Under the pieces are notes generated by a model. It had not been told where the DNA came from, made no database searches, and saw only the letters and a list, made by a program, of their open reading frames with translations. Positions 1 through 16,444 of a stretch of DNA of 16,444 bases are shown here, piece by piece. The first letter of the stretch is position 1; the number at the start of each line of letters is the position of its first letter. This DNA comes from Rhodothermales bacterium (GTDB taxonomy: Bacteria > Bacteroidota > Rhodothermia > Rhodothermales > VXPQ01): contig JBBDTI010000087.1 of NCBI GenBank assembly GCA_040904565.1, positions 1 to 16,444 on the forward strand, in the 5' to 3' direction. Made by a program: the position numbers and the translations under genes.

Positions 1-1
1 G

Positions 2-75
2 TGCGCACGGGAGGATTCGAACCCCCGGCCTTTGGAACCGGAATCCAACGCTCTATCCAACTGAGCTACGTGCGC
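2..75 (-). tRNA. tRNA-Arg(CCG)
   Basis: Reverse complement reads GCGCACG TAGCTCAGTTGGATAGAGC G TTGGA-TTCCGGT-TCCAA AGGCC GGGGGTTCGAATCCTCC CGTGCGC A. It has a 7-bp acceptor stem, D arm, anticodon CCG at 39-41 and a GTTCGAATC T loop. Position 1 would be the first C of a possible CCA cut by the window edge. Confidence 0.97.
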
Positions 76-331
76 ATGGACGGCCGGAATCGCACGCGGC
101 GTCCGGCCAGGTTCCATCAAAATAGTAAGCGGACAATAGGTTCCTTGATCGCCGTTCGCAGGGCGCCCGCGTCGCACATCCGTTCGGCTGTCCTTACGGC
201 CGTACGTGCGGGCGTCCACACGAACATTCCACGCGAACGTGACGTGCCCGGTGCTCCGCCAGCCGTCGCGCGCCGGTCAGGCATCGGCGGGTTTGAAGGG
301 AACGAAGTGCTGGTATTCCAGTCGCATACTC

Positions 332-359
332 TTGCAACCTCGTGTGAAATTCGTACATT
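332..359 (+). promoter_or_regulatory. Candidate housekeeping sigma-70 promoter for the sigma-factor operon (TTGCAA-N16-TACATT)
   Basis: TTGCAA at 332-337 and TACATT at 354-359 with a 16-bp spacer, in a locally AT-richer part of the divergent tRNA/sigma intergenic region. Motif match only. Confidence 0.35.
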
Positions 360-523
360 GAAGGCCCGCCCATGCAGATTGCCAGTGTACGTCCACCGTC
401 CAAGCCGAGGCGGTCTGTGCACCGAATCCTTTGATGGAATGCCCCACTGATCGCCAGCCGGTTGGATCATGGCCGGTATTGATGCTCGGCGTCTGATTGA
501 CCACTCACAATCCCCGATCCGAG

Positions 524-10573: not shown

Positions 10574-11983
10574 TTGGCTATCGTATCCGCAGGAAAATCC
10601 GTTCCGTGTCGCGTGGACGTGCGCCCGTCTCTCGTGCCCAAAATGCGGTTCGCCCTTCGCATGCTCCTCGTGCCGTTGGGCCTGGAACCGGACTGGATCG
10701 AGGAGGATCGCGTGGACGGAGCGCTGTATTACGGGGCGAATCCCGAACGGGCTTCGGCCGCGCGGGTGGTCTTTCCGTACGCATCCTCCGCCGCGCCATT
10801 TTTCGAACGCACGGCTCCGTTCGACGTGAAAAATGCGGCGCGGCATCGCCTGGCATCGCGTGAAGTACCGGTCTTCTTCGTTGACGAGCATGGGCGACCC
10901 GATCTCGTCGCGTCGAGCTTTTTGTGGCTCAGCGGTTGGCAGGAGTGGACGGACGGGCGCCGCGACGAGCACGGCCGCGTTCGATACGCCGACGCACTGT
11001 CCGCGCAGTTTGATACGGCCCTACACCCGGTCGTGGACGCATATCGCGTGGACGTCGAACGGCAGCTTCAGGCCGGCGGAATGGAGGTGAAGCGGCGTAG
11101 GTGGGGAGACGACCGCTGGGCTTTTTGCGCGACGCACGACGTAGACTATCTGCGCAAATGGCGCCCGGGCATTCTGTATAGAGAGTTCGTCGACTATCTG
11201 CTGCTCAACCGGCGCGGCGATTCCTTCGCAGAGCGGATACGTCGAACGATGCACGTACTGGGTGCGATGGGTGGACAGGACCCCTATCGGCGTGCCATGG
11301 AGGAGATGCCGCGTCTGGTGACCGATAAAGGGGGTACGGCCACGTACTTCGTTAAGTCGGGAGGAGAGGATCCGCACGACGTACCCTATCGGGTGGATTC
11401 GACGTTTATGCGCACGTGGCTGGCGCGGTTGGCGGCGAGCGGGTTCGAGGTCGGACTGCACCCCAGCTACGTGACGGTTGACGAGCCGAAACGATTGGAG
11501 AGCGAGAAGCAGCGATTGGACCGTGTCGCATCTCGTCCCGTCGTGTCGGTCCGCCAGCACTATCTGCGATTCGACCCGGCGACGACGCCTGCTCTCTACG
11601 ATCGCCTGGGATTCGAGGTGGACAGCACGCTGGGCTTTGCCGAGCACGAGGGGTTCCGGAGGGGGACCTGCCTGCCCTACCAGCTCTACGATCTGGAACG
11701 GGATCGTCCGACGAAGGTGTGGGAAATGCCGTTGGGATTGATGGATTCCGCACTATTCAACCGGCGCAGGCTGAGTGCGGACCAGGCCCTCCGCGCGGTG
11801 CAGGAGCTTGCGTCCGCGTGCAAACAGCACGGCGGCGTGCTCGTCGGCCTCTGGCACACCACGCTGGGTGATGAAATGGACCATCCGGGATGGAAAGCCC
11901 ACTTCATCCGGTCTCTCGATCATGCGACGGAGGAAGGCGCCGCGATGTTCTCGCTCTCCGACGCCCTGAAGGAGTGGGCGTGA
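10574..11983 (+). CDS. Polysaccharide deacetylase family (CE4/NodB-like barrel) protein with N-terminal accessory domain (DUF7033-like)
   Basis: THDVD, EVGLHPSY, RQHYLR, DSTLG, FRRGTCLPY, EMPLGLMD and LWH motifs. Start uncertain (TTG 10574, GTG 10613 or ATG 10643). Confidence 0.85.
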   Translation: MAIVSAGKSVPCRVDVRPSLVPKMRFALRMLLVPLGLEPDWIEEDRVDGALYYGANPERASAARVVFPYASSAAPFFERTAPFDVKNAARHRLASREVPVFFVDEHGRPDLVASSFLWLSGWQEWTDGRRDEHGRVRYADALSAQFDTALHPVVDAYRVDVERQLQAGGMEVKRRRWGDDRWAFCATHDVDYLRKWRPGILYREFVDYLLLNRRGDSFAERIRRTMHVLGAMGGQDPYRRAMEEMPRLVTDKGGTATYFVKSGGEDPHDVPYRVDSTFMRTWLARLAASGFEVGLHPSYVTVDEPKRLESEKQRLDRVASRPVVSVRQHYLRFDPATTPALYDRLGFEVDSTLGFAEHEGFRRGTCLPYQLYDLERDRPTKVWEMPLGLMDSALFNRRRLSADQALRAVQELASACKQHGGVLVGLWHTTLGDEMDHPGWKAHFIRSLDHATEEGAAMFSLSDALKEWA

Positions 11984-11995
11984 ATGCAGCCGCGC

Positions 11996-12850
11996 TCAGA
12001 ATCCCTCGGCAGACAGATGTTCGACCACGCTCACGTAGAAGGCGTTCGCATCGAAGGCACTCTGGCCGGGAGTCAGTCCGACCTGCTGCCCGTGATCCGC
12101 ATCGATGGTTCCGAGAAAAGTCCCCCACCTGGCGCTTTCGACCGAGACGAATCCGTCGTTCACGCCCTCGCGCGGAAACAGTCTGTCGTTAAGGATGCGA
12201 AGGACGGGATTGATGGGTGCGTCCGTTCCCTTGCCTGCCTGCGCAGCGTAGGAGTAATAGCGGACGGAGGGATGATCCGGTACGTCGGCGTTGAATACCT
12301 CGTCAACGTAAGACGGGGTGAGCTCCGCGACGGACCGAAGAAAGTCGGCCGACGCATCCTCCAGGGCACGGTCCCCCATCCAGTTGAGTACGTCCGCCAT
12401 CCATTTTCGCGCCCACTCCGGCTGTTCGAGCACGAGATCCGCGATCCCGGTGCCGTGATGCGGCGTCGAAATCGTGACGAGCGCGGCCACACGATCGTGC
12501 ATGCCGACGGTGCTGATAAGATAGCGCGCGTCGAGACCGCCCATCGACTGGGCGATGACATTGAGCCGGCGCGCACCGGTTTCCCGCAGGATGTGGTCGA
12601 GACGCGCCTTCCACATGTCCGCTCGATATCGGACCGTATTGTACGGCGCGACGTTCGGGGCGAAGGCGGGGACGCCGTGCTCGCGCAGGTGCATCGCTTC
12701 CTCGTGGAGATGTCCGCCCCTGAACAGGGATGCGAAGATGCCGAATCCGTGCATGAGAACGACCGGATACCGGCTGCGGATGAACCGCGGCTGCGGGAAG
12801 GGTTCGAGTCCGGCTACGTGCTGCCAGGAGGATTCGACGAGATCGGGCAC
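11996..12850 (-). CDS. Alpha/beta-hydrolase, triacylglycerol lipase family
   Basis: PVVLMHG oxyanion segment, nucleophile elbow IAQSMGGLDARY, TISTPHHG, catalytic Asp in NDGFV and His in ADH. No signal peptide evident. GTG start. Confidence 0.9.
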   Translation of the reverse strand: MPDLVESSWQHVAGLEPFPQPRFIRSRYPVVLMHGFGIFASLFRGGHLHEEAMHLREHGVPAFAPNVAPYNTVRYRADMWKARLDHILRETGARRLNVIAQSMGGLDARYLISTVGMHDRVAALVTISTPHHGTGIADLVLEQPEWARKWMADVLNWMGDRALEDASADFLRSVAELTPSYVDEVFNADVPDHPSVRYYSYAAQAGKGTDAPINPVLRILNDRLFPREGVNDGFVSVESARWGTFLGTIDADHGQQVGLTPGQSAFDANAFYVSVVEHLSAEGF

Positions 12851-12898
12851 GATAGAATATCGGGGTTGGTTCCGCAGGTCGGGACCAGAGACGCCAAG

Positions 12899-13699
12899 TT
12901 ACAGGGAAAAGACGAGAAGGACGGCGGCTATCACCAGCGGTACCCGCACGTTGTCGTTGACGGGCCAGTCGGGCACCTCCATGGCGGCACCGGTCAGGGC
13001 CGCCGTAAGAGCCGCTGGAAAGGAAATGTGGGCGTAGGGCAGCAAGCCCAACAGCACGACGACGCCGAAGGCGGCCGATCCCTCCACCGTGCGCCGTGTG
13101 TTCTTCCAGCGGTGACGTCCGAATCGGATGCCGACGATGGCGGCCGCCGCATCGGCCACCATGAACGCGGCAAATGCGGGAGCCGCAAGGTGAACCGGAA
13201 AAGCAATCGTCAGAAGCGTGGCAGAGACGAGCACCCACGTTGCTCCGTTGATGATGGGCAGGCCGTTGGTCGGTCGAAGCTCTTCCGGCCGCATCATCCG
13301 GCCGAATATCACGTCGACGAGCGCTGAAAAGCGCTCGGATCTGGAACGAATGACGTCAGCGACCGCGGCCACCATCGTGAGGGGCACCAGTACGACCAGC
13401 GCGGCCGGCCTGCCGAGGACGTACATGCCTAAAGGGATCACGAGAGCCAGCAGGTGGAGCCCCTTGCGCAGCAGCTCACCTGACAGGGGGAGAGAGGTGA
13501 GACTCCGAGGAGGCTCGGTCGCGGACGTGTCGCCTTCCGACTGTGGAGCGGAGGAGACCCGGCCGGAGCGTCCCTCTGCCCACATCTCCGATGCGGCGCT
13601 TGAGGACGGCTCCGTCGTGGCGTCGGACTGCTGCGTGGGCGTCTTGCTCGTTGGAATCTCTTCTCGCGCGTTATGACGTGTCGGGTCGTGACTCGACAT
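12899..13699 (-). CDS. SEC59/DGK1/VTE5 family CTP-dependent lipid (diacylglycerol/polyprenol/phytol) kinase
   Basis: ELLRKGLH, ADAAAAIVG.RFGRHRW...RTVEGSAAF and DNVRVP motifs in a polytopic membrane domain. ATG 13699 (or 13585) preferred over the 13945 ORF-track start. Confidence 0.85.
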   Translation of the reverse strand: MSSHDPTRHNAREEIPTSKTPTQQSDATTEPSSSAASEMWAEGRSGRVSSAPQSEGDTSATEPPRSLTSLPLSGELLRKGLHLLALVIPLGMYVLGRPAALVVLVPLTMVAAVADVIRSRSERFSALVDVIFGRMMRPEELRPTNGLPIINGATWVLVSATLLTIAFPVHLAAPAFAAFMVADAAAAIVGIRFGRHRWKNTRRTVEGSAAFGVVVLLGLLPYAHISFPAALTAALTGAAMEVPDWPVNDNVRVPLVIAAVLLVFSL

Positions 13700-13974
13700 C
13701 GGCTCTGATATACGTGATGGATGCCGGACCGGCTTCGCTCGACGGCAGGTGCCCCGTTTGGTTCGGAGGGCCGGCAGACGCTGCCGGAAGCCCTGCGTTC
13801 TGGATCTGCCGCGGCCCCCAGGACGCCGTCGGAGCGAACAGAAGACCCGCGCAAAAGTTCGTTGCCACCGTGCGAACGATTCGTGTCGCCCGCTCGTGCA
13901 ATCTACGGCAGCCGACTGAAATCTACGTGGGCTCCCTTGGAACATAGCGAACGCAGGTACTTATTCTCCGGGCT

Positions 13975-15054
13975 ATGCCTGACTTCAAACCGCTACAAAA
14001 CGAGCTTTTTCTTCGAGCGGCCCGTGGGGAAGATACACCCCGGGCCCCCGTATGGATGATGCGTCAGGCCGGCAGGTACCTGCCGGAATACCGTGCCCTC
14101 CGAGCCGAAGAGGCCTTCTTCGAGGTCTGCAGGACCCCGGCGCTGGCGGCCGAGGTTACCCTGCAGCCGATCGAACGCTTCGAGCTCGATGCCGCCATCA
14201 TCTTTTCGGACATCCTCGTCGTACCGCAGGCGATGGGCATGGACGTGCGCATCGTTAAGGGTGAGGGGCCCCGTTTCGACGCCCCCCTGGACGAGCCGCG
14301 AGACCTCGAGCGGCTCCTGACACCCGACGTAAAGAACGATCTCGGCTACGTCTTCGATGCGCTGACGCATACGCGTGAGGATCTGGCGGGCCGCGTGCCG
14401 TTGATCGGATTCTGCGGTGCACCGTGGACGCTGATGGCTTACATGATCGAGGGCGGCGGCAGCAAGCACTTCGTAAAGGCGCGATCGTGGTTGTACCGGT
14501 ATCCGGAGGCTTCCCGCGAGCTGCTTGAGACGCTGACGGATCTGCTGATAGAGTATCTGGTAGGGCAGGTCGATGCCGGGGCGCAGGCCGTGCAGATCTT
14601 CGATTCGTGGGCCGGACTACTGGGTCCGTCCGAGTTTCAAACGTTTGTTCTTCCGTCGCTACGTCGGATCGCGCGGAGCTTAAAGGAATTCAGGCCGGAG
14701 GTTCCGAGCATCGTATTTGCCCGTGGGGCGCACTACGCCCCGGCCATGCTAGCGGAGACGGACTTCGACGTCATCAGCCTGGACTGGTCCATGGATCCTC
14801 GAGACGTTCGTCCGCTAGTCGGCGAGAAGGTGCTGCAGGGCAACCTCGATCCGGCCGTCCTTTTTGCAGAACCTGAGATCATCCGGGACGAGGTACGCCG
14901 CATGCTCTCCCAGTTCGGGACGACGCGGCACATCGCCAATCTGGGGCATGGGATGCATCCCGACCACGATCCTGAACGGGCACAGGTGTTTATCGACGCC
15001 GTGCACGAAATTTCGGAAGAGCTTCGATCCGCCCAGCCGGTGTCGAGCGCGTGA
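13975..15054 (+). CDS. hemE: Uroporphyrinogen decarboxylase
   Basis: PVWMMRQAGRYLPEY, IFSDIL, GAPWTLMAY, QIFDSW, LQGNLDP and NLGHG motifs. Confidence 0.98.
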   Translation: MPDFKPLQNELFLRAARGEDTPRAPVWMMRQAGRYLPEYRALRAEEAFFEVCRTPALAAEVTLQPIERFELDAAIIFSDILVVPQAMGMDVRIVKGEGPRFDAPLDEPRDLERLLTPDVKNDLGYVFDALTHTREDLAGRVPLIGFCGAPWTLMAYMIEGGGSKHFVKARSWLYRYPEASRELLETLTDLLIEYLVGQVDAGAQAVQIFDSWAGLLGPSEFQTFVLPSLRRIARSLKEFRPEVPSIVFARGAHYAPAMLAETDFDVISLDWSMDPRDVRPLVGEKVLQGNLDPAVLFAEPEIIRDEVRRMLSQFGTTRHIANLGHGMHPDHDPERAQVFIDAVHEISEELRSAQPVSSA

Positions 15055-15749
15055 TGCCCGGTCGGCTGGACGTACTGCATCTGGACAACCACCTCCTCGT
15101 CGTCAACAAGCCGGCCGGTCTGCTCGTGCAGGAGGACGCAACGGGCGACCCCGATCTGCTTCGACTCGGCAAGCAATTCATCAAGGAGCGTTTCGATAAA
15201 CCGGGCAACGTGTATCTCGGCCTCGTCCACCGACTGGACCGGCCGGCATCCGGCGTCGTCGTGCTGGCGCGAACGTCTAAGGCGGCCGCCCGTCTGTCGG
15301 ATCAGTTTCGGCGGCGCACACCGGAGAAAGACTATCTCGCCGTCGTCGAGGGCTCGTGTGCCGGTGCCGGACTGCGCCGTGACGTCCTCGTGAAGGAGGA
15401 GGACGGGCGCGTCCGCGTCGCCAGGTCCAGTGAATCCGCCGGGAAGTCTGCCAGCCTGCAGTGGCGTTCGGTAGCGGAAAAAGATGGACTCACGCTCCTT
15501 TCCGTACGATTGCACACGGGCCGGAAGCACCAGATTCGTGTACAGGTTGCGGCGATGGGCCACCCGATCCTGGGTGACTTCAGATACGGTGCCGAGCGGG
15601 AACTCGACGGCCGGAATCTCGCCCTCCATTGCTACCGCCTGGCCGTCATCCATCCCACGAATGAGGAGTGGACGTCGTTTTCCGCGGGGCCGGACTGGCC
15701 CGGGCTGTTCAGCGCGCAGATCGAGGCCCTCCTGGCGTCTGCCCGCTAG
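15054..15749 (+). CDS. RluA family pseudouridine synthase (no S4 domain)
   Basis: VNKPAGL, catalytic VHRLDRPASG, TGRKHQIR, HPILGDFRYG and LHCYRL...HP motifs. TGATG overlap with the hemE stop (alternative GTG 15051). Confidence 0.95.
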   Translation: MPGRLDVLHLDNHLLVVNKPAGLLVQEDATGDPDLLRLGKQFIKERFDKPGNVYLGLVHRLDRPASGVVVLARTSKAAARLSDQFRRRTPEKDYLAVVEGSCAGAGLRRDVLVKEEDGRVRVARSSESAGKSASLQWRSVAEKDGLTLLSVRLHTGRKHQIRVQVAAMGHPILGDFRYGAERELDGRNLALHCYRLAVIHPTNEEWTSFSAGPDWPGLFSAQIEALLASAR

Positions 15750-16043
15750 CTACTCGTCGATACGGAAGATGCGAGCCTGTTCCGCCGCGGTGGCGGGAGC
15801 GGGGAGCACGCATACGGTGTCCGTCCGCGACGGATCGACGACGATAGGAACGTAGTTGTAGGTTTCGAAGACGCCCTCCGACCGTTTGAACCGCTGGGCC
15901 ATAGCTCGGCGCATGCGCCGGTAGGCCCGCGGGCCGACCAGAATGCATTTTGCTTCGGCCTCCGCGTCGCGCAGCTCGCGGATCCGATCGTTTATGAAGT
16001 CGAGGATCTCGTCCTCGGGCGGACTGTATTCCAGTATCGTCAT
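15750..16043 (-). CDS. Probable A-domain-only (family 4, DUF1884-like) encapsulin/HK97-derived protein, 97 aa
   Basis: ATG at 16043 gives MTILEYSPPEDEILDFINDRIRELRDAEAEAKCILVGPRAYRRMRRAMAQRFKRSEGVFETYNYVPIVVDPSRTDTVCVLPAPATAAEQARIFRIDE. The helix - ILVG..AY helix - PIVVD - VCV pattern and size match DUF1884 proteins as recalled. The longer 16418 start overlaps hemF antisense and is rejected. Confidence 0.75.
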   Translation of the reverse strand: MTILEYSPPEDEILDFINDRIRELRDAEAEAKCILVGPRAYRRMRRAMAQRFKRSEGVFETYNYVPIVVDPSRTDTVCVLPAPATAAEQARIFRIDE

Positions 16044-16086
16044 GGTGCTCGAAACGGAGTCATGTGGATCAAGGCATAGATAACAG

Positions 16087-16444
16087 ATGCTCGACGAGAA
16101 AGATCGGATCCCGAATCCTTCCGCCGCAACCGATGCCGGTACGGCGATTGCCGGACGCATGCAGGCCTTCGTAGAGGAACTCCAGCGGGTGATCCTCGAT
16201 GGACTGGAGCGGCTCGATGACGGCCGCGCGTTTCGGAAGGATCGGTGGGAGCGGCCCGGTGGTGGAGGAGGAATTACGGCGGTCCTGGCGGAGGGTCGCG
16301 TTTTTGAGAAGGCCGGCGTGAATACCTCGGCCGTATACGGCGAGCTTCCTAAGCGGATGACGGAGGTCCTCGGCGTCGACCCACACCCGTTCTTCGCCAC
16401 GGGGCTGTCCCTCGTCATCCATCCCAGAAATCCGCACGTTCCTA
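16087..16444 (+). CDS. hemF: Oxygen-dependent coproporphyrinogen-III oxidase (5' partial; absent from the ORF track because it runs off the window)
   Basis: Manual translation: MLDEKDRIPNPSAATDAGTAIAGRMQAFVEELQRVILDGLERLDDGRAFRKDRWERPGGGGGITAVLAEGRVFEKAGVNTSAVYGELP...FFATGLSLVIHPRNPHVP, with HemF motifs GGGG, VFEKAGVN and SLVIHPRNPHVP. Alternative ATG at 16159. Confidence 0.96.
   Translation, partial: MLDEKDRIPNPSAATDAGTAIAGRMQAFVEELQRVILDGLERLDDGRAFRKDRWERPGGGGGITAVLAEGRVFEKAGVNTSAVYGELPKRMTEVLGVDPHPFFATGLSLVIHPRNPHVP

Follow-up and report, generated by a model that had tools for sequence, protein, structure and literature searches.

Organization of the locus

The window analyzed here is the whole of contig JBBDTI010000087.1 of a Rhodothermales bacterium (16,444 nucleotides; contig C87 of the 95-contig assembly GCA_040904565.1). 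Near its end, the minus strand carries a gene for a protein of 97 amino acids (aa), which we assign with very little doubt to encapsulin family 4, bacterial subfamily 4C, as a member that consists only of the HK97-fold A-domain. Its gene, referred to below as 4C, sits antisense exactly between rluA and hemF of an otherwise colinear heme biosynthesis cluster. The features of this region are collected in Table 1.

Table 1. Genes and spacer at the 4C locus of the window
Feature	Position	Strand	Details
hemE (uroporphyrinogen decarboxylase)	13975..15054	+	PF01208, E 2.8e-139
RluA-family pseudouridine synthase gene (rluA)	15051..15749	+	PF00849, E 2e-32; convergent with 4C
Family 4C A-domain gene (4C)	15750..16043	-	ATG 16043-16041, TAG 15752-15750; 97 aa, 11.2 kDa, isoelectric point 5.25
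Spacer between the divergent 4C and hemF start codons	16044..16086		43 bp, from the sequence
hemF, 5ʹ part (oxygen-dependent coproporphyrinogen III oxidase)	16087..16443	+	PF01218, E 5.2e-30; gene cut by the contig end

The mechanical list of open reading frames (ORFs) had no separate entry for the 97-aa gene, which formed the 3ʹ part of a listed 222-aa frame with its start at 16418. An earlier reading of this stretch from its sequence alone (the sequence-only reading) had dismissed the 222-aa call as spurious and placed a 97-aa minus-strand ORF with a characteristic residue pattern between hemE-rluA and hemF. Both statements held: the ORF, its translation and its Pfam-matched flanks were as described, and the residue pattern was present in the translated protein. 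The first methionine is an invariant column of the family alignment, all 86 aligned relatives (94-103 aa) beginning at the same residue, and the additional upstream codons of the 222-aa frame cover the 5ʹ end of hemF, which reads from the opposite strand (PF01218 from 16087/16156). Because the curated profile NF041192 also matches from residue 1, these observations identify the 97-aa start as the right one, and the minus-strand ORF was confirmed as a real gene.

As read from the junction sequences, the stop codons of 4C and rluA abut (TAG/CTA), and the TGA stop of hemE overlaps the GTG start of rluA by four bases. The rluA product scored 159.1 bits against TIGR00005 (rluA_subfam), under the cut-off of 192.7. 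The window holds the first 119 codons of hemF; the remaining part was located at C73:21396-22034 of the same assembly (HemF profile positions 82-295), and after it, at the end of contig C73, lies the ferrochelatase gene hemH (C73:20140-21108).

Identity of the protein by sequence profile and fold

The 97-aa protein matched NF041192, the curated hidden Markov model (HMM) named "family 4C encapsulin nanocompartment shell protein", with 130.9 bits and an E value of 1.3e-38 (curated cut-off 90). Residues 1-96 aligned with profile positions 1-96 of 97, which corresponds to the full length, and the six-frame genome search with the same profile gave 129.8 bits. The 4A and 4B profiles reached only 15.2 and 15.6 bits on this protein, and the nearest cluster in the Atlas was named family 4C encapsulin nanocompartment shell protein. 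Pfam PF08967 (ENCP4, formerly DUF1884) scored 16.3 bits (E 0.011, residues 12-50), below its gathering threshold of 31.4; among the 86 relatives, 31 matched this family at E <= 0.01, the best at 3.1e-6. A phmmer search of the PDB chains with the single sequence returned nothing meaningful (best 8ugc, E 0.19), and the profile built from the 86 relatives placed PF0899 of Pyrococcus furiosus (2pk8_A) at the top of the PDB sequences with an E value of 1.9e-4.

The AlphaFold2 model, computed with the family alignment, was a single compact domain (predicted local distance difference test, pLDDT, 94.4; predicted template modeling score, pTM, 0.86). Foldseek found no match in the PDB at E <= 0.001, its top entry being 2pk8 at E 1.9e-2. 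In an exhaustive structural search with VIA-align, 2pk8_A came first (Z 10.3, root-mean-square deviation 2.3 over 81 residues), and all 49 entries at ranks 2-50 were HK97-fold capsids or encapsulins, with Z values of 8.0-4.8 over 77-96 aligned residues. The capsid matches used their A-domain segment, for example residues 240-383 of 1ohg. Sequence length, model and fold alignment agree that the 97-aa protein is an A-domain only, with no P-domain or E-loop.

The likeness to DUF1884 proteins and PF0899 and the placement in family 4, which the sequence-only reading had put forward, were borne out by NF041192, the family profile and the fold search, with 4C as the subfamily. The profile similarity expected there was found over the full length and above the cut-off with NF041192, and the Pfam part of that expectation fell short, PF08967 staying below its gathering score. 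Likewise, the expected structural similarity to PF0899 and to HK97 A-domains was recovered by VIA-align, and the Foldseek match to 2pk8 was weak.

Next after PF0899 among the PDB sequences matched by the family profile came the cobaltochelatase CbiK (1qgo, profile positions 39-78). The match is tempting because CbiK is related to ferrochelatase and the ferrochelatase gene is a neighbor of 4C, but at E 0.3 it is most likely due to chance, and we rejected it.

Predicted assembly state

When two copies of the protein were modeled with the 86-row alignment, the interface score ipSAE (interaction prediction score from aligned errors) was 0.70 (0.69-0.71 between runs), and the best of three controls gave 0.00; the dimer, one of the assemblies listed for prediction in the sequence-only reading, therefore passed. 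The contacts agreed at 100% between the runs, and the partner pLDDT was at least 88. Of the proteins used for calibration, 20 of 30 solved as pairs and 1 of 23 solved as single chains attained the mark, figures that are approximate with a custom alignment. The predicted symmetric interface comprises residues 3, 5, 32-38, 41-42, 58-60, 66-72, 80 and 82-92, among them G37, D70 and P71, which are invariant in the family alignment, and Y41 and V68, which are nearly so. The modeling suggests that the protein is most likely a symmetric homodimer, which would pair through its most conserved surface, and G37, Y41, V68, D70 and P71 of the predicted interface offer concrete targets for mutation.

Distribution, inheritance and selection

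The survey sample consisted of 201 genomes of the same order (91 genera) and 14 control genomes. 4C was carried by 88 of the 201 genomes, 87 of them above the cut-off, representing 45 of the 91 genera, and by none of the 14 controls; it occurred as one copy in the genome. A sample of 401 genomes of the phylum contained 11 with 4C, all in the same order. Searching 5.8 billion proteins yielded 149 hits, and the few named ones were "family 4C encapsulin" or hypothetical proteins of Rubrivirga, Rhodothermales or Bacteroidota.

The ratio of nonsynonymous to synonymous substitution rates (dN/dS) was 0.06-0.27 in all 13 computable pairs, three more pairs being saturated. The GC content at third codon positions (GC3) of the 4C gene was 0.786, and both GC and GC3 were close to those of the neighboring genes. 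The 4C protein tree, a quick one with many unresolved forks, grouped the sequences by taxonomic family. 4C is a long-resident chromosomal gene that has been inherited vertically within one bacterial order under purifying selection. The bacterial branch of family 4 is thus widespread in this order, with 45 of 91 sampled genera compared to two genera in print.

Gene contexts of 4C and its position in the hem cluster

We fetched ±4.5 kb around 4C in 87 loci, including that of the window and leaving out one partial hit at a contig end. Conserved neighboring ORFs were clustered, named with Pfam and NCBIfam, and counted by tblastn. hemF lay directly upstream and divergent in 28 of the 87 loci, and hemH did so in 13. 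An RluA-type gene was convergent within 1 kb downstream in 47 loci, and hemE was found within 3 kb downstream in 16. A Hydrolase_4 alpha/beta hydrolase gene stood upstream and divergent in 33 loci, an ABC ATPase gene upstream and co-oriented in nine, and three loci showed none of these neighbor types. Some hem gene (hemF, hemH, hemE or hemL) was present in 45 of the fetched loci, and no hem gene lay within ±4.5 kb of 4C in the other 42, so the linkage of homologs to hem genes, which the sequence-only reading had named as a check, was seen in the former and not in the latter. The 4C gene was never co-oriented with the hem genes.

For comparison, we inspected the hemF locus of 14 genomes that lack 4C. 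All hem-cluster genes found there shared a strand and followed the sequence hemE, rluA, hemF, hemH and hemL (TIGR00713 above cut-off), often with a methyltransferase gene before hemL; three of these loci were without rluA and some without other members. The gap between rluA and hemF was at most 153 bp in 9 of the 11 loci holding both genes, and tblastn at E <= 10 detected no remnant of 4C in the 14 loci. It is because these relatives have a colinear hemE-rluA-hemF-hemH-(methyltransferase)-hemL arrangement at this place that 4C can be described as lying antisense inside the cluster. Two loci without 4C (L121 and L131) had rluA-hemF gaps of 612-841 bp, in which there was no 4C-like sequence at E <= 10. 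As a separate observation, the gene of an RluA-type RNA-modifying enzyme is embedded in the heme cluster, and the hemE-rluA-hemF-hemH-(methyltransferase)-hemL order recurs without 4C.

In the 4C tree, the loci with the hydrolase context formed one clade (31 rows; approximate likelihood-ratio test, aLRT, 99), and all hem and rluA contexts were in the other. With the hem context confined to one of two main clades, the heme enrichment corresponds to about one ancestral arrangement, which would have persisted as some lineages lost first hemF and later hemH from beside 4C.

Two contexts had co-oriented neighbors. In the hydrolase context, a co-oriented DUF427 gene (PF04248) followed 4C in 26 of 33 loci (L049, L062, L069, L074 and 22 others, from two taxonomic families), starting 3-160 bp after 4C; the two genes may form an operon in these loci. 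The nine loci with the ABC ATPase gene (L068, L075, L093, L098, L104, L105, L112, L114 and L115) had a gap of 0-46 bp to 4C in eight cases and of 617 bp in L104, and DUF5687 and RNase R genes preceded the ATPase gene. In sister lineages, hemH lies between them; in these nine loci it appears to have been deleted. A co-oriented enzyme gene upstream of 4C was absent from 78 of the 87 loci, the nine others following the ABC ATPase gene; targeting peptides were not searched for.

Co-occurrence of 4C with HemF and ferrochelatase

HemF, called by PF01218 across the 201 genomes, was present in 83. Both 4C and HemF were found in 41 genomes, 4C without a HemF match in 47, HemF without a 4C match in 42, and neither in 71. 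Where both were present, the two genes were adjacent and divergent in 29 genomes and not in the other 12. The separation followed lineages: 4C was found in 24/24 and HemF in 2/24 genomes of the family labeled f10 in our survey, 4C in 10/13 and HemF in 0/13 genomes of family f6, and HemF in 12/12 and 4C in 0/12 genomes of genus g2. Ferrochelatase was found in 181 of the 201 genomes and in 81 of the 88 with 4C; the seven 4C genomes without a ferrochelatase match include one (G032) at 94% completeness. Because HemH is near-universal, its co-occurrence with 4C is uninformative.

The sequence-only reading had suggested that the protein acts as a scaffold or chaperone for HemF, or couples HemE to HemF for channeling. 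As a role of the 4C family, this is not supported by the genome comparisons, since HemF and 4C are decoupled across genomes (47 of 88 genomes with 4C had no HemF match, and 42 of 83 with HemF had no 4C match), and since the hem context amounts to about one ancestral arrangement. Moreover, selection on an operon-like cluster would carry along any gene embedded in it, which makes the synteny of 4C weak evidence for function. A local, lineage-specific tie of 4C to late heme synthesis is possible.

Promoters and transcription

As 4C is antisense to the cluster, it would need its own promoter, divergent from that of hemF, and the 43-bp spacer must hold, or be flanked by, the promoters of both genes. 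A scan of 15400-16444 for the sigma-70-type consensus, which does not cover other promoter types, gave no promoter-like site. One terminator-like site was found in the same interval; it lies inside hemF and is not relevant here. When the upstream regions were read by eye, no motif was common to the four gene contexts. A TATAcc/TTTAAc-like element was seen by eye approximately 30 nt upstream of the 4C start in many loci with the hydrolase context. No RNA data set was listed as covering the Rhodothermus-type locus (L032:3200-6200). Four sequencing runs labeled metatranscriptomic were considered as evidence of transcription and strand and rejected, since they contain the stretch as 5-8 kb pieces, from contigs of up to 158 kb and with an identity of about 97%, and so behave like DNA.

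Remainder of the window

The ORFs between 497 and 10431 matched a sigma-70 region 4 protein, a CAAX-type protease, DUF2007, a CdsA-type cytidylyltransferase, MutL, TilS, a phosphoribosyltransferase, a histone-deacetylase-family protein and an HD-domain protein, all of them ordinary housekeeping functions. No phage or mobile-element family was present among the other 12 Pfam-matched ORFs of the window (15 scanned, five without a match), in agreement with the earlier remark that no phage genes are nearby. The regions 10574-13945 and 1-450 contain several sizeable ORFs with little or no family assignment: ORF 10574-11983 (+) matched only DUF7033, and ORFs 11984-13327 (+, 447 aa) and 1-450 (+) had no Pfam match at E <= 1e-5.

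Interpretation and alternative explanations

Family 4 was divided into 4A, 4B and 4C by Andreas and Giessen (2021, Nat Commun 12:4748; PMC8346489), whose text describes 4C as the bacterial branch. According to this text, family 4 occurs outside Archaea only in Rubricoccus and Rhodothermus, the bacterial members are classed as "Orphan/Unknown", and all carriers are called thermophilic vent anaerobes. The same text reports that heme genes are enriched around 4C, proposes family 4 proteins as stabilizing, chaperone-like or sequestering partners of the neighboring enzyme, cites proteomics in which a family 4B protein and the neighboring GAPDH form a stable complex, and raises the hypothesis of family 4 facets. 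Passages on the family in a 2024 review (PMC11664910) describe the sole family 4 structure as a dimer whose contact is unlike capsomer contacts, state that shell formation does not seem to occur in family 4, and call for work on family 4, the archaeal hosts being hard to handle. Our full-text literature search found no later paper on family 4C. The identity of the protein and its heme association are both already published, and the functional idea of the sequence-only reading restates a published hypothesis. The placement of the gene antisense within an operon was not found in the main text of PMC8346489, the supplement of which may show gene orientation.

Taken together, the explanation that we favor, and consider probable, is that this is a genuine 4C gene encoding a dimeric accessory protein that is not tied to HemF. 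It is established for the fold that a 97-aa A-domain protein without P-domain and E-loop cannot build a capsid-like shell alone. The protein could be a small dimeric accessory or binding protein with a function not tied to HemF, and its heme neighborhood would be mainly synteny kept through embedding in the operon-like cluster. In this mechanistic form, in which the heme link is mostly inherited synteny, the reading is tentative and we place it a little short of an even chance.

Several points weigh against this reading. In 41 of the 87 loci, 4C has a divergent hemF or hemH gene as its immediate upstream neighbor, the hem context has been kept across deep divergence (4C identity is approximately 50% between families), and hemL lies two genes downstream of 4C in four loci with the hydrolase context; such a persistent hem context could mean that 4C does have a functional link with tetrapyrrole synthesis. 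In an incomplete genome, a missing match is no proof of absence, which bears on the co-occurrence counts, and the 4C tree, from which the single ancestral arrangement is read, comes from a quick search with many unresolved forks. As for the assembly state, the dimer may have passed partly through likeness to a solved structure, because PF0899 crystallised as a dimer, and since only two copies were modeled, pentamers or larger assemblies are conceivable.

The alternative that fares best widens the idea of the sequence-only reading to include HemH: by binding to HemF and/or ferrochelatase, or to a labile porphyrinogen, the 4C dimer would stabilize or channel the last heme steps, its position being explained by divergent co-regulation with hemF-hemH-hemL. 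This would account for the 41 loci with divergent hemF or hemH, for the 45 with some hem gene within ±4.5 kb and for the divergent spacer of only 43 bp in the window, and it is in line with the hem enrichment and the 4B-GAPDH complex described in the text of PMC8346489. Ferrochelatase is also found in 81 of 88 genomes with 4C, but an enzyme that is present in 181 of 201 genomes makes this co-occurrence uninformative, and seven 4C genomes, G032 among them, have no ferrochelatase match. Moreover, HemF and 4C are each found without the other in about half of their genomes (47/88 and 42/83), 33 of 87 loci lie beside the alpha/beta hydrolase gene with no hemF, hemH or hemE nearby, the hem context is restricted to one of the two main tree clades and so reflects about one evolutionary event, and 4C is never co-oriented with hem genes. 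We regard this alternative as unlikely. Slightly more doubtful still is its fuller version, in which a capsid-derived dimer was recruited in Rhodothermales as a dedicated terminal-heme helper that binds ferrochelatase and/or HemF or porphyrin(ogen), is expressed divergently from hemF-hemH-hemL, and plays the same role in trans in the lineages where it has moved to the hydrolase/DUF427 context. If true, a cellular function would for the first time be defined for the family 4 "encapsulins", and in bacteria that are aerobic and culturable.

A true nanocompartment, in which the protein forms a small closed shell or pentameric facets enclosing an enzyme, would fit the capsid A-domain fold, which lines the five-fold axis in capsids, and the facets hypothesized in the text of PMC8346489. 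However, the 97-aa protein has no P-domain or E-loop, the one available family 4 structure shows a dimer with a contact unlike that of capsomers (as described in passages of PMC11664910), and the assembly predicted here is a symmetric two-fold dimer. In addition, 78 of 87 loci have no cargo-like enzyme gene upstream in the same orientation as 4C, which in the nine exceptions follows an ABC ATPase gene. A shell is thus very improbable.

Equally improbable, in our judgment, is a domesticated A-domain that mimics a capsid protein, binding the HK97-type capsid proteins of phages and disturbing head assembly. Small phage proteins of 76-176 aa in BFVD share the fold weakly (best E 1.5e-4, TMq 0.68), but 4C is a single-copy gene, vertical across the order, with dN/dS of about 0.1. 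It lies in a stable housekeeping neighborhood and not in a variable island, and there were no phage or defense genes among the scanned ORFs of the window.

Finally, although GC-rich DNA yields many long shadow ORFs and the mechanical list shows only the 222-aa frame, a chance ORF or a real 222-aa product can be practically discarded in view of the full-length match to a curated HMM, the start shared by all 86 relatives (94-103 aa), the purifying selection, the confident fold and the overlap of the 222-aa extension with hemF.

For the family 4 "encapsulins", the window adds no new kind of element. The present analysis contributes the wider distribution, the antisense placement in an operon, the decoupling from HemF and the predicted dimer interface. 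The decoupling steers experiments away from a model built on HemF only. Genetic tools exist for Rhodothermus, and cultured aerobic hosts such as this genus provide a practical system for the study of family 4.

Comparison with known systems

The A-domains of HK97-fold major capsid proteins and of family 1 and 2 encapsulins, for example those of HK97 gp5 (1OHG), Che8 (8E16) and the P. furiosus virus-like particle (2E0Z), have the same core of two helices plus a beta-sheet as the window protein. Compared with the HK97-fold capsids and the family 1 and 2 encapsulins as wholes, the window protein is without P-domain, E-loop and N-arm, and the identity is 1-17%. The phage mini-proteins in BFVD resemble it in small size and fold, a comparison made by structure only; they are encoded by viruses, whereas the window gene is chromosomal, vertically inherited and under strong purifying selection.

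Within family 4, PF0899 of Pyrococcus furiosus (2PK8, family 4A) is the best match both by structure and, among PDB sequences, with the family profile. PF0899 crystallised as a dimer, as stated in passages of PMC11664910, and a dimer is predicted for the window protein. The identity between the two is only 17-23%, and beyond the aligned core the model of the window protein shows one more strand at the N terminus and a helix plus strand at the C terminus. Archaeal family 4 genes follow enzyme genes in operons according to the text of PMC8346489, whereas the window gene is antisense to its neighbors.

The closest system is family 4C itself (NF041192; PMC8346489). As far as the text of that paper describes it, the window protein shares with it the length of about 97 aa, the bacterial host, the A-domain-only architecture, the orphan status without a co-oriented enzyme gene and the nearby heme genes. 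Nothing essential differs; the paper's text names two genera, and 4C is found here in 45 of the 91 sampled genera of the order.

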